A DNA stretch of 64,000 bases, taken from assembly GCA_017505785.1 (NCBI GenBank), contig JAFVOQ010000004.1, positions 733 to 64,732 of the forward strand, read 5' to 3'. Below the pieces are notes generated by a model. That model had not been told where the DNA came from, made no database searches, and saw only the letters and a list, made by a program, of their open reading frames with translations. Of this stretch, positions 33,152-61,070 are shown one piece after another. Origin of the DNA: Clostridia bacterium. GTDB lineage: Bacteria > Bacillota > Clostridia > Oscillospirales > CAG-272. The position numbers and the translations under genes are program-made. Every line of letters begins with the position of its first letter. The first letter of the stretch is position 1.

Positions 33152-33187
33152 TAGCCGCACAGGAGTCGAACACACAAGGTCTCGTGG
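33152..33187 (-). repeat. Degenerate copy of the tRNA-minihelix-like repeat
   Basis: TAGCCGCACAGGAGTCGAACACACAAGGTCTCGTGG matches the 55133-55170 element at about 30 of 38 positions by my own alignment, in the same orientation. Confidence 0.7.
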
Positions 33188-33394
33188 GGCATCTTTTCCG
33201 CAATACTTTGCCGAATTTTTCTTAAATATCCGCATATTTCTCAAAAAATTCGACTCGTCTTGCAAAAAACCTATCCCCCCGAGACTGCAATGCACCCTGC
33301 GGCAAAAAAATTTTTGATGGATTTTACCGTGGCAAGGTGAAGATAAGTGTGGACTTTTCAAGACTTGACACGGTAAAAGACGCGAAAATTTATC

Positions 33395-33430
33395 GCCGCA
33401 GGGCTTATGGGTTTGACTCCCGTGCGGCTA
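33395..33430 (+). repeat. tRNA-minihelix-like repeat, inverted relative to 33152-33187
   Basis: GCCGCAGGGCTTATGGGTTTGACTCCCGTGCGGCTA differs from the reverse complement of 55133-55168 by one base. Confidence 0.85.
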
Positions 33431-53037: not shown

Positions 53038-54081
53038 TTACGCATTTTCAAGCATTGCCGTAAGCAGTGCTGTCATTGCCTCAATATCACTGTATTTTGC
53101 CACCGTAACGGGTGCATGCAAATAACGTGTGGGGGCGGAGAGCGCAAGGCAACGCACGCCAACGCCCGACTGGTGAATATGCTTGGCATCGTTGCCGCCC
53201 GATACATAACGCTTTACCTGCACGGGGATATTCTTCTCCCCTGCAATATGCAGTGCTCGGTCGATAAGCGCACGGTCATAGATCGTGCCTTTATCCAGCA
53301 ACGAGAGCACCCCGCCCGCACCAATATCTGCCACACGGCGTGCGGCGGGCACATCGGGCAGATCTGCCATTGCAGTGGTTTCAATGACAAATGCCACGTC
53401 GGGTGACACGCGATTTGCCACCACGGCAGCACCCGAAATACCAAGCTCCTCTCGCACGGTGAAGGCAAACCACAGATCAAGCGGCAGGTGTTTGTCCGAA
53501 ACGGCGCGCAGCACTTCGATCAGCACGGCGCAGCCAACGCGGTCGTCAAGTGCCTTGCCGGAAAGGAACGCCTTGTCCTTGCCAAAGGGCAGGAAGGGTG
53601 TGTCAAAGGTGCCAAAATCGCCAAGCGACACGTAGTGCTCCGCCTCCTCGCGACTGCTAACACCGATGTCGATATACATATCCTTGAGCTGCGGCATTTT
53701 ACTGCGCTCCTCAGCGGTTTGAAAATGAATACCCTTTTGCGAGATCACACCCAACGCACGCTTCGTTTCATTGCCAAGCGTGACGGGTCTGCCAACCAGC
53801 ACACGGGGGTCAATGCCGCCAAGCGTGGCAAAGCGAAGAAAGCCGTTTGACTCGATCTCTGTGATCATAAAGCCGACCTCGTCCATGTGCGCCGAAAGCA
53901 GCACGCGCGGTGCCCCCACGGGGCCGGGCAAATGTGCTGTAAGATTGCCCATACGGTCCGTCATCAGCTCCGCAGGTACACCCGCAAGCTCGGCGCGGAT
54001 CAGTCCTTCCACCTCGCCCTCGCACCCCGAGGGCCCAAAGGCAAGCGCAAGCTTTTCGATCAGTTTTACACCGCTTGTCAT
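53038..54081 (-). CDS. M42 family metallopeptidase (paralog 2)
   Basis: GPSGCEGEV, SAHMDEVGFMI and LDDRVGCAVL motifs. Confidence 0.88.
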   Translation of the reverse strand: MTSGVKLIEKLALAFGPSGCEGEVEGLIRAELAGVPAELMTDRMGNLTAHLPGPVGAPRVLLSAHMDEVGFMITEIESNGFLRFATLGGIDPRVLVGRPVTLGNETKRALGVISQKGIHFQTAEERSKMPQLKDMYIDIGVSSREEAEHYVSLGDFGTFDTPFLPFGKDKAFLSGKALDDRVGCAVLIEVLRAVSDKHLPLDLWFAFTVREELGISGAAVVANRVSPDVAFVIETTAMADLPDVPAARRVADIGAGGVLSLLDKGTIYDRALIDRALHIAGEKNIPVQVKRYVSGGNDAKHIHQSGVGVRCLALSAPTRYLHAPVTVAKYSDIEAMTALLTAMLENA

Positions 54082-55115
54082 ACCGCAAACACCTCCGCGA
54101 TCTCTTTGTCGGTCACAAATGCCTCTACCAACCTTTTGAGCGCATCGGCGTCCCTCATATCCAAAACCTCTTGGTACGTGTGCATGGCGGTAAGGGGCAG
54201 CCCCACATCTACCACCGAAATGCCTGCCCCAACCAAATGCAGTGCCTCGGTGTTCGTGCCCGTGCTCTTTGGCTCAACAGCGATCTGCCACGGGATATTT
54301 TCCCTAGTAGCAAGTGCCTCGGTCATCGCCGTTAGGCGACGGTCAACAATAGCACTGCGTGCAACAGAGGGGCCCTTGCCCATTTCCACGCAATCGCGGC
54401 GCTCAGCACCACTCATATATCCAAGGTTGACATCGATCACCATGGCATAATCCGGCATAAGGGCAAAGCCGCCAACGGCAGTGCCACCGATGTGATCGGT
54501 TTCCTCATGTACCGAAAGTAACAAATAGACATCGCCCGCAAGCTGCGAGGCAGGGATCTCCAGCAGTGCCGCCGCGGCAATGGCAGCGCATGCCTTATTA
54601 TCAAGCCCCTTACCCGTGAGTCTGCCGCCCGCAAGCGTGCGATACATGGGATAAAAACCAACGGGGGTGCCGATACGCACCAATTCGCGCAGCTCCTCGG
54701 TGGGGTAACCCGTGTCGATCAAAAGCTCCTCTGTGCGGGGCAGCTTTTTTTCATCACCCGACAAATGCGGGGGCGTTGAGGATACAACGGCATCGATCAC
54801 CTCTTTGCCGTACACGCGCACGCGTGCGGAGGAAAGCGTGCGTACATCAAGGCCGCCCACCGAGGTTACCGTAAGGAATCCGCCCTCCTTTATATCGGTT
54901 ACCAGCATGCCGATCTCATCAAAATGCGTATCAATGAGAATTTTCGGCGCATTTTTCTTGCCCGACCGACGGACAAACACATGATTACCGACAGTATCGG
55001 TGTAGCTCTCGTCAAAGCCCTGCATCAAAGCAAGGAGCCGATCTCTGTCATAGCTTTCGTAGCCCGTGATGCTCATCAGATCCGCAAGGGCACAAATGAA
55101 TTGCTTCAGTTCCAA
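54078..55115 (-). CDS. M42 family metallopeptidase (paralog 3)
   Basis: SITGYES, THFDEIGMLV and LDNKACAA motifs. I prefer TTG 55115, which has AAAGGA 9 nt upstream, over the ORF-track start at 55184. The extension would run through the minihelix repeat at 55133-55170. Confidence 0.8.
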   Translation of the reverse strand: MELKQFICALADLMSITGYESYDRDRLLALMQGFDESYTDTVGNHVFVRRSGKKNAPKILIDTHFDEIGMLVTDIKEGGFLTVTSVGGLDVRTLSSARVRVYGKEVIDAVVSSTPPHLSGDEKKLPRTEELLIDTGYPTEELRELVRIGTPVGFYPMYRTLAGGRLTGKGLDNKACAAIAAAALLEIPASQLAGDVYLLLSVHEETDHIGGTAVGGFALMPDYAMVIDVNLGYMSGAERRDCVEMGKGPSVARSAIVDRRLTAMTEALATRENIPWQIAVEPKSTGTNTEALHLVGAGISVVDVGLPLTAMHTYQEVLDMRDADALKRLVEAFVTDKEIAEVFAV

Positions 55116-55132
55116 AATTTTATATCCTTTCT

Positions 55133-55170
55133 TAGCCGCACGGGAGTCGAACCCATAAGCCCTGCGGCTA
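55133..55170 (-). repeat. 38-nt tRNA acceptor/T-arm minihelix-like element
   Basis: The minus strand reads TAGCCGC AGGGCTT ATGGG TTCGACT CCCGT GCGGCTA. That gives a 7-bp acceptor-like stem, a 5-bp stem and a TTCGACT T-loop-like heptaloop. It is nearly identical to 33395-33430. Confidence 0.85.
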
Positions 55171-55246
55171 GGCACAACCGACAAGTCCGAACACGATTTT
55201 GCCGGACAAATTTAGGTCGTTGCCACGTTAAAATACTCGTGAAACC

Positions 55247-56620
55247 CTAGGCAAGCCCCTCTACCAACCGGCAAAAGGCCTCGCCTCTTTCTTCAAAGTC
55301 ACGAAATTCACCAAACGCGGTACACGCCGGTGAAAGTAAAACGGTATCACCCTCATCGGCAGCATCGGCAGCCGCAAAAAAGGCATCGGCAAAGCGAGAG
55401 AATACCCAGTGTGGAAGCTTGGGATCCAGCACCGCAGCGATCTCTGCCGCTGCCTCACCGTAAAGATAAACAGCCTTGGCGTGTGCCGCAAGTGCCGTTG
55501 CCAAGGGGGCAAACGATATCCCCTTTCCCCTACCGCCCACAATCACCAAGGGGTGCGCGTCAAGCGCGGCAAGTGCCGCGGCAGTTCTGGTGGGCGAGGT
55601 ATCAATGGAGCTGTTATAATAGGTTACCCCACGCACCGTATCAACATACTGCAGGCGATGCGCGACGCCGCGAAAATCCCGCAGTGCCGCTTGCGGCGCA
55701 GCGTCGTCAAGAAACGGTGCTGTCGCACCAATGGCGGCAAGCAGGTTTTCAAGATTGTGCACGCCAGGCAAGCGAAAGGAGGAAAGACAGGAAAACGCGC
55801 GCTGCGCGCCTCTTTCCGCCACGATAATATCATTCTCGGATGTATACACCGCACCGCTGCCAGCAACAATATCGTTGGCAAATTCAGCCCCCTTTGCCAA
55901 CGACGAAAAAAAGATCGCATTTCCGGCTCTTCTCTGTCCGATCTCGCGCGTGAGCGCGTTTTCGCCATTTAGCACAAGGCGCGTATCGGCGGCAAAAATG
56001 CGGCACTTCGCCGCCCTGTATTCCGTCATATCGGTATGCCAGTTGAGGTGATTGGGGGTGATATTGGTGATCACCGCCACCTCTGGCGCACGGCGCGCCG
56101 TCATAAGCTGAAAGCTGGAAAGCTCCAAGACGGCAATATCGCTTGCATGTATTTGCGATACCGCAGGTAAAAGGGGCGTGCCGTTGTTACCGCCAAGCCA
56201 CACGCGGTGTCCCGCCGCACCGAGCAGGGCGGCTGTAAGATTTGCCGTGGTGGTCTTTCCGTCACTGCCCGTAATGCCAATGCACCTGCAGGGGAGCTGT
56301 GCCATCAACAGCTCAACCTCGCTCAAAAGCAGCGCACCTGCCGCAACAGAATGCAAAATCGCAGGGATATCGGGGCGAATACCGGGAGAGCGTATCAGCG
56401 CCTGCTCCCCAAACACTGTTGGGAAAGCCCCCACGTGAAAGGCAATGCCCAACCCCGCACAGCTCGCTTCCACATCAGAGGGCAAGGGTGCCTCGGTATA
56501 TACCGTGGCGGTGGCACCTCTTTCCCTCAGCCACGCCAGCACCGCGCGATTGGCGCGCCCAAAGCCAAGCAGTGCCACAGAAAAATGTGAGGGGGTCTTA
56601 CAAAATGCTTCAAGAGTCAT
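55247..56620 (-). CDS. murD: UDP-N-acetylmuramoylalanine--D-glutamate ligase
   Basis: 457 aa with the GITGSDGKTTT (P-loop) and NITPNHLNWH motifs. Confidence 0.94.
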   Translation of the reverse strand: MTLEAFCKTPSHFSVALLGFGRANRAVLAWLRERGATATVYTEAPLPSDVEASCAGLGIAFHVGAFPTVFGEQALIRSPGIRPDIPAILHSVAAGALLLSEVELLMAQLPCRCIGITGSDGKTTTANLTAALLGAAGHRVWLGGNNGTPLLPAVSQIHASDIAVLELSSFQLMTARRAPEVAVITNITPNHLNWHTDMTEYRAAKCRIFAADTRLVLNGENALTREIGQRRAGNAIFFSSLAKGAEFANDIVAGSGAVYTSENDIIVAERGAQRAFSCLSSFRLPGVHNLENLLAAIGATAPFLDDAAPQAALRDFRGVAHRLQYVDTVRGVTYYNSSIDTSPTRTAAALAALDAHPLVIVGGRGKGISFAPLATALAAHAKAVYLYGEAAAEIAAVLDPKLPHWVFSRFADAFFAAADAADEGDTVLLSPACTAFGEFRDFEERGEAFCRLVEGLA

Positions 56621-60979: not shown

Positions 60980-61070
60980 GGAGGAGTACTCAAGTGGTCG
61001 AAGAGGCGTGACTCGAAATCTCGTAGGCCGTTAACGCGGCGCGTGGGTTCAAATCCCACCTCCTCCGCCA
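60980..61070 (+). tRNA. tRNA-Ser (anticodon CGA), class II with long variable arm, CCA encoded
   Basis: Manual fold: acceptor GGAGGAG/CTCCTCC, D-arm CTC-AAGTGGTCGAA-GAG, anticodon loop CT-CGA-AA, long variable arm, T-arm GTGGG-TTCAAAT-CCCAC, discriminator G plus CCA. Confidence 0.9.

Follow-up and report, generated by a model that had tools for sequence, protein, structure and literature searches.

What is the 38-nt element that lies between murD and three tandem genes for M42-family aminopeptidases—an RNA signal built like part of a tRNA, or a piece of mobile DNA? The element is found in a window of 64,000 nt, the whole stretch of DNA analysed here (contig C37:733-64732), from a genome of 1.69 Mb in 77 contigs (G000); its relatives are MAGs from animal guts, labelled Oscillospiraceae, Eubacteriales or Clostridia. 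A preliminary description had read the element as a tRNA acceptor-stem/T-arm minihelix, quoting it on the minus strand (55170-55133) as TAGCCGCAGGGCTTATGGGTTCGACTCCCGTGCGGCTA, and the genome carries precisely this sequence. The second copy that it had pointed to is likewise present: it occupies 33395-33430, runs in the other direction and has a single mismatch in the 34-nt core (33395-33428, plus strand). None of 100 dinucleotide shuffles matched the 38-nt element, which indicates that it is non-random. With a probability of roughly 85%, we conclude that it is the decayed solo terminus of a non-autonomous, TA-flanked MITE—a genomic fossil rather than a tRNA-derived signal. This reading draws on the structure of the repeat family, the distribution of its copies, empty insertion sites, the duplication of TA and the lack of any relationship to tRNA. 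The locus comprises the following features:

55247-56620, minus strand: murD, encoding UDP-N-acetylmuramoyl-L-alanine--D-glutamate ligase (TIGR01087, scoring 317.7 bits where the cut-off is 211.95)
55247-55249, minus strand: TAG stop codon of murD, made of a flanking TA and the first G of the inserted DNA
55171-55246, minus strand: 5'-truncated right end (76 nt) of MITE family 2, ending in ...CGTGTTCGGACTTGTCGGTTGTGCC-TA, which corresponds to the upstream hairpin of the preliminary description
55133-55170, minus strand: solo remnant of MITE family 1, consisting of TA, a 34-nt core and TA
54078-55115, minus strand: first of the three tandem M42-family aminopeptidase paralogues, with its true start at TTG 55115-55113

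Copies of family 1 were located by searching the complete assembly with blastn-short for the 38-mer and its flanking DNA, which returned about 20 whole or partial copies, about a dozen of them near-identical and all of them intergenic. The proposal that the element belongs to a dispersed repeat family and is no chance hairpin is thereby borne out with far more than two copies, and the possibility that only the two copies seen in the window exist falls away, as blast also detects the family in 11 of 25 congeneric genomes. By the same means, the 16 genomes searched outside this family but within the order gave no copy. Typically, about 250 bp separate two copies in inverted orientation, or a copy stands beside a contig end. 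The complete unit measures about 278 bp, reads TA-GCCGCACGGGAGTCGAACCCATAAGCCCTGCGGCGATAAATTT ... CTTATaTGTTCGgCTCCCGTGCGGC-TA, contains no ORF and is bounded by terminal inverted repeats of 25-27 bp with the sequence GCCGCACGGGAGTCGAAC[A/C]CATAAG. The spacing within a pair of these repeats is about 252 bp, both in all full copies of this genome and in 6 other MAGs, and the full element, folded as single-stranded DNA, forms a double hairpin closed by the terminal repeats (-75 kcal/mol, z = -12.5). Young copies are 91-100% identical within the genome and about 75% identical between species. Six full copies of 278-336 bp were found:

33152-33430, minus strand (C37:33884-34162): full-length family-1 MITE of 279 bp, 78% identical to the reference copy over positions 1-278
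C1:6355-6690: full family-1 copy
C1:7466-7743: full family-1 copy
C42:20638-20916: full family-1 copy
C57:18-295: full family-1 copy
C60:18-296: full family-1 copy

The full copy inside the window occupies the spacer between an S4-domain (yabO-like) gene and yabP. What the preliminary description took for a second copy (33395-33430) is the A end of this element, and the inverted repeat of the B end is found at 33152-33178. Contigs C6, C31, C21 and C34 terminate in half-copies and contig C28 begins with one, and the family-1 repeat therefore breaks the assembly. The copy at C1:6355-6690, with a length of 336 bp, contains an additional palindrome of about 58 nt in its interior (CAAATCGCGAGAAATCGCTTTGCGATTTTCGCATGAAGGAATTGCTCTGCAATTCTTC), and a similar module (GGATTGCAAAGCAATC..AATCGCTTTGCGATT) lengthens the family-2 copy in C50 with respect to the one in C13.

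The anatomy of the full element accounts for the apparent minihelix. On the plus strand, the core of the solo consists of the left terminal inverted repeat, GCCGCACGGGAGTCGAACCCATAAG, followed by an internal complement, CCCTGCGGC. The solo matches positions 1-36 of the 278-bp element with 97% identity, this 36-nt core being one terminus of the unit. The internal complement directly follows the left repeat and is complementary to the first 9 nt of that repeat, and because of it the left end forms a local hairpin (GCCGCA-c-GGG / CCC-TGCGGC), i.e., the 'minihelix'. The solo at 55133-55170 is bounded by TA on both sides, while full copies have TC, TT or GA at the inner boundary. A 7-8-bp outer stem can indeed be drawn, as the claim of a 7-bp acceptor-like stem required, but the two outermost 'acceptor' pairs are found in solos only, being nothing other than the TA dinucleotides at the flanks; in a 21-sequence alignment, pair 2-37 is confined to the 5 solos. 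A second solo in the same genome (C42:64745-64782) has the same build, with the hairpin followed directly by TA. Solos flanked by TA on both sides recur in this genome (2), in G048 (3), in RGIG5389 and in G013, and a solo in G020 is flanked by TA..TG and bears that genome's own variant of the repeat. Solos keep the left repeat and the internal complement, followed directly by the terminal TA, and the body of about 240 bp was probably deleted when slippage occurred between two TGCGGC direct repeats, one internal and one terminal; use of the internal complement as an alternative right end is a less likely route to the same product than the TGCGGC deletion.

The DNA immediately upstream of the solo belongs to a related family. 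The nested hairpin reported there (GGCAAC..GTCCG..CGGAC..GTTGTGCC) is seen at 55171-55230, and the region 55171-55246 is identical over 78 nt to C50:29208-29285 (100%) and 95% identical to C13:40400-40478. The family-2 unit has a length of 277-333 bp and reads TA-GGCACAACCGACAAGTCCGAACACG ... CGTGTTCGGACTTGTCGGTTGTGCC-TA. Families 2 and 3 are represented as follows:

C50:28953-29285: full family-2 element with terminal inverted repeats of 25-27 nt
C13:40202-40478: full family-2 element with terminal inverted repeats of 25-27 nt
C21:2421-2577: family 3
C34:41540-41712: family 3
C7:16183 onward: family 3
C31:1-150: family 3
L002, L004, L009 and L073: further loci with family 3

The family-2 fragment and the solo at 55133-55170 have their flanking TA in common. 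Contigs C57 and C60 both begin with the last 17 nt of family 2, fused through TA to a full family-1 element, which brings the adjacency of the two families to at least 3 instances in this genome. Moreover, a third related end (...TTATTCCCTCTTGCC-TA) adjoins family-1 ends in G000, G024, G006, G017 and G013. As the families adjoin via TA, they therefore often insert at each other's flanking TA. Re-use of one TA by different families is also seen between species: at the site orthologous to G048:C12:2286, a family-1 stub in G048 stands against a full family-3 element in G000. The right end of family 3 (...GAGTTCGGATTATTCCCTCTTGCC-TA) adjoins family-1 ends in at least 5 species. A ...CCGAAC motif, located about 18-25 nt from the tip and common to all three families, suggests that they may be served by related transposases.

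Evidence for past mobility came from comparing filled and empty sites, for which the flanks of 8 insertions were joined and searched in the closest relatives. All 8 flank pairs are contiguous in G045, and 8/8 tested sites, among them that of the full copy at 33152-33430, are therefore empty in that genome. A single TA stands at the empty sites in G045 that correspond to C42:20638 (..CTCTCCTTTCC TA AGTGCCTTGC), to the family-2 insertion at C50:28953 (..GCGTG TA AACGGGGCGAG) and to the solo at C42:64745, while TA stands at either end of filled sites. When filled and empty sites were aligned globally with MAFFT, the alignments were poor across the large gap, and 3-4 junctions are cleanly readable. 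Conversely, the sole full family-1 copy of G048 occupies a site that is empty in G000. Family 1 is accordingly a short unit bounded by terminal inverted repeats, with TA target duplication, no coding capacity, dispersed copies and presence/absence variation. The inverted repeats, the TA duplication and the empty sites are the defining properties of MITEs, as in RUP and Correia. The earlier suggestion of a tRNA-derived, REP/MITE-like selfish repeat is thus half right: the MITE-like part stands on the terminal repeats, the TA flanks and the polymorphism between species, and the derivation from tRNA fails for want of any tRNA similarity. We came across no published account of MITEs from Oscillospiraceae in a search of the literature; family 1 is a new family of a well-known element kind.

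MITEs with TA termini that are mobilised by IS630 elements include RUP and Correia (PMC2229807). Family 1 shares with RUP and other IS630-mobilised MITEs the lack of coding capacity, the terminal inverted repeats, insertion at TA with that dinucleotide at both termini, an intergenic location and a high similarity among young copies (PMC2229807). RUP also often lands beside or inside other mobile elements (PMC2229807), as families 1, 2 and 3 do here by adjoining via shared TAs. However, RUP measures 107 bp with 9-bp repeats, against 278 bp with 25-27-bp repeats in family 1, and family 1 further differs from RUP in its uncultured Oscillospiraceae host, in the lack of a cognate IS630-type transposase or parent IS in the genus, and in having one end with an extra self-complement that gives rise to stable 34-nt solos. 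The Correia/NEMIS elements of Neisseria offer a parallel in their TA duplication, their repeats of about 24-26 bp, their transcripts predicted to fold as hairpins, and their insertion near gene ends, where they can alter the ends and the expression signals of neighbouring genes (PMC2229807). They differ from family 1 in reaching hundreds of copies, as opposed to about 20, and have no sequence similarity to it. A pattern scan of the family-1 MITE detected no IHF site or outward promoter (0 matches), and a TTGACA...TAAAAT pair noticed by eye has a spacer of only 13 nt.

At the murD-M42 junction, the solo and the family-2 fragment together make up a 117-nt insert between CTTGCC and AGAAAGGA. The three M42 aminopeptidase paralogues next to murD were confirmed. 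The ribosome-binding site of the first of them, AGAAAGGA at 55132-55125, touches the terminal TA of the element and is intact; as all homologues start at the TTG of LELK (55115-55113) after this site, the open reading frame running through the element is an artefact, as had been suspected. In insert-free congeners, the end of murD overlaps the ribosome-binding site or initiation region of the M42 gene, as illustrated by the junctions of G043 (GAGCTCGCCGCAGAAAGGAAATAAAATTTTGGAACTG) and G045 (GGAGCTAGAAAGGAAATAAAATTTTGG). The 117-nt insert therefore separates two genes that overlap in relatives, supplying the TAG of murD and leaving the M42 ribosome-binding site as it was. The MurD protein ends in ...VEGLA* in G000, in comparison to ...LAAERK* or ...QELERK* in insert-free relatives; the TAG of the insert shortens it by 3-4 residues. 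Neither a terminator nor a promoter was predicted within the 117-nt insert. TAG stops formed by TA and the first G of an element of family 1 or 2 were also seen at C1:7466, C57:293, C28:139 and C12:4036, which indicates that TA-targeting elements repeatedly land in or beside stop codons and redefine the 3' ends of genes. The ancestral junction, CTT-GCCGCAG-AAAGGA (window 55247-55260 compared with L013, L020 and L021), holds GCCGCAG, the start of the solo on the transcribed strand; this sharing may be a coincidence or microhomology favouring insertion or rearrangement.

The junction carries no insert in 18-19 of the 21 congeners examined; among these 21, one (G048) carries the same solo and two an unrelated insert. 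The latter, rich in hairpins and about 270 nt long, lies downstream of murD in L017 (G046) and L018 (G005), and repeats thus seem to land at this junction recurrently. In G048 (SIG675), the solo has the same place and orientation, is identical in 33/34 nt and stands without the family-2 fragment. G048 and G045 are sisters (90% nucleotide identity in murD and 94% in the M42 gene), with G000 as the outgroup (about 80% and 87%, respectively). The presence of the solo in G000 and G048 and its absence from the sister G045 imply either an old insertion followed by an in-frame loss of about 42 nt, or two independent hits. We considered, and rejected, the idea that the shared solo is conserved to excess and hence under selection: G000 and G048 are about 93% identical in the sequence on either side of it, and an identity of 33/34 is no excess against that background.

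As to what moved these elements, the TA duplication and the architecture of the repeats point to mobilisation in trans by a DDE transposase of the Tc1/mariner/IS630 type. Profile searches yielded no PF13358 (DDE_3) match above the cut-off in 40 genomes of the genus and no PF01609 (DDE_Tnp_1) match in 5 MITE-bearing genomes; since MAGs, to which all of these genomes belong, are prone to missing IS copies, the absence of a transposase is weak evidence. No repeat pair more than 300 bp apart, as expected of a parent IS, occurs among 15 loci. The inverted repeat gave 0 matches in JGI metagenome contigs and 0 in viral contigs, and a 31-mer at the M42 start (alleles with or without the insert) gave 0 in JGI metagenome contigs. 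TA duplication, one mark of the IS630/Tc1-mariner class, is present, and repeats matching an IS630-family transposase gene were not found (no DDE_3); the element resembles IS630-mobilised MITEs in behaviour and is a putative member of their class.

Two other accounts of how the 34-nt sequence spread have to be weighed against deletion within a DDE-mobilised MITE. The element could be a REP/REPIN palindrome or an IS200/IS605 derivative, moved as single-stranded DNA by a Y1 (HUH) rather than a DDE transposase. Y1_Tnp genes do occur in 5/5 MITE-bearing genomes tested, including a RAYT-like gene in G000, and the solo resembles REP/BIME and REPIN sequences in being a short, GC-rich, imperfect palindrome of 34 nt that is intergenic, occurs in inverted pairs and has a stem that co-varies between species. 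However, each pair of family 1 bounds a single 278-bp unit whose body is conserved, the long terminal repeats and the TA duplication are both absent in IS200/IS605 and REP, there is no GTAG head, and the Y1 genes are flanked by unrelated hairpins of their own (CCACCCG..CGGGTGG; GTAGGGGCGATTCACGAATCGCCC). We regard this account as highly improbable, and the PF01797 matches were rejected as the mobiliser, being IS200-type or RAYT-type genes with unrelated ends. An IS200-like Y1 gene is split over the contig ends C8:1-204 and C73:3-182, with CCACCCG..CGGGTGG hairpins nearby, and the RAYT-like gene (C49:12136-12447) is flanked by GTAGGGGCGATTCACGAATCGCCC palindromes; hairpins of the form GGGAGGGG..CCCCTCCCCTAC elsewhere (e.g., C67:45860 and C49:12040) suggest a distinct REP family. 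Alternatively, the 34-bp solo might itself be mobile—a 'nano-MITE' using the terminal repeat and the internal complement as its ends and spreading by transposition instead of arising by deletion in place. The flanks speak for it, since solos nearly always have TA on both sides and the inner boundary of full copies reads TC, TT or GA; so do the occurrence of solos in at least 5 genomes, their 3:1 ratio to full copies in G048, and the failure to find any site at which one species has a full copy and another a solo. Its two ends would, however, have just 9 nt in common and overlap the 25-nt repeat, too short for the paired-end complexes of known DDE transposases such as Tc1/mariner and ISY100, and a deletion between the TGCGGC repeats yields an identical product. 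An independently mobile solo is, on balance, distinctly unlikely.

The RNA-based readings fare no better. The preliminary description had drawn a 5-bp stem with a TTCGACT loop; it can be drawn, and the loop fits the T-loop consensus, yet it is not the minimum-free-energy fold, which for the 38-mer consists of an 8-bp outer stem, GG/CC and a 4-bp stem with a triloop (-18.1 kcal/mol, z = -2.4). A tRNA acceptor/T-arm minihelix shares with the element the 7-8-bp outer stem that can be drawn around the 5-bp stem and the 7-nt TTCGACT loop; in contrast to such a minihelix, the solo has a 7-nt bulge between its stems, and its stem begins with the TA target duplication. Across 21 distinct copies from at least 9 genomes, compensatory change was found in 0/5 pairs of the T-stem; pairs of this stem are broken in 6 (pair 18-28), 3 and 2 of the 21 copies, and the T-loop positions vary as well (T replaces C56 in 6 copies, C replaces T54 in 2 and G replaces A58 in 1). 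In G020 and G017, a single pair of the outer stem has changed in a compensatory way, from C-G to U-A, and the right-hand repeat has changed in step; such a change is expected if one protein recognises all three sites and is no argument for RNA function. ARAGORN and Rfam at gathering thresholds found only a tRNA-Ser at 60980 in the whole window, the Rfam tRNA model (RF00005) had no match at E<=10 on the locus with two copies, and other Rfam results at E<=10 were noise (ctRNA_pGA1 on the flanking terminator, and miRNAs). As far as the sequence goes, it gives no support to a minihelix, to cleavage by RNase P or RNase Z, or to a role in mRNA processing.

It could still be that the solo is an exapted RNA hairpin, selected in the murD-M42 transcript for stabilising, processing or uncoupling, and perhaps a T-arm/acceptor mimic recognised by RNase P, RNase Z or the CCA-adding enzyme. 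The same solo does occupy the same junction in the same orientation in the non-sister genomes G000 and G048 (33/34 nt); it is stable, lies directly 5' of the M42 ribosome-binding site and, with no terminator predicted, is probably co-transcribed. A functional hairpin would likewise be expected to retain its stem across species with one compensatory change, and the hairpins of Correia/NEMIS are known RNase III targets (PMC2229807). But with flanks about 93% identical the 33/34 match is unremarkable, the solo is absent from the sister G045 and from 18 other congeners, and other solos are oriented opposite to the adjoining gene or lie behind terminators. The T-stem and T-loop data and the fold given above, together with the lack of an Rfam tRNA match, argue against this reading as well, and we consider exaptation very unlikely. 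Lower still, and practically nil, is the chance that a tRNA or tmRNA gene left its 3' fragment here as an integrase attachment site, a refuting case named in the preliminary description itself. GGGTTCGACTCCC followed by the 7-nt 'acceptor' strand is superficially like the 3' end of a tRNA, but the roughly 20 copies form the inverted ends of a 278-bp unit without an integrase, the scan of viral contigs gave no match, and neither a matching tRNA in G000 nor an Rfam tRNA match was found. The best of the 38 tRNA/tmRNA genes in G000 has at least 8/20 mismatches, and a tRNA 3' fragment was rejected as a candidate. Taken together, the propositions that the solo is an independently mobile unit or that its hairpin has been repeatedly retained after loss of the body, as an mRNA uncoupling, stabilising or processing signal, are unlikely; if true, either would explain why the same murD-M42 solo persists in two non-sister species. 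The decayed MITE terminus remains our preferred reading, and we infer that the remnant is now functionally inert, save for incidental effects on the end of murD.

These findings pose no challenge to the current understanding of MITEs; the residual interest lies in the recurrent 34-nt solos, the solo shared at the murD-M42 junction and the missing transposase. Since the families are undescribed and searches of the genus yielded no transposase for them, they mark a mobile-element system whose autonomous partner would have to be sought in closed genomes. For the biology of this genus of uncultured gut Oscillospiraceae, the results mean that it has at least three related TA-targeting MITE families, which break MAG assemblies, supply stop codons (that of murD in the present case), part translationally coupled gene pairs and create apparent 'structured RNA' motifs—and recognising these elements avoids false calls of tRNA-like or riboswitch-like RNAs.
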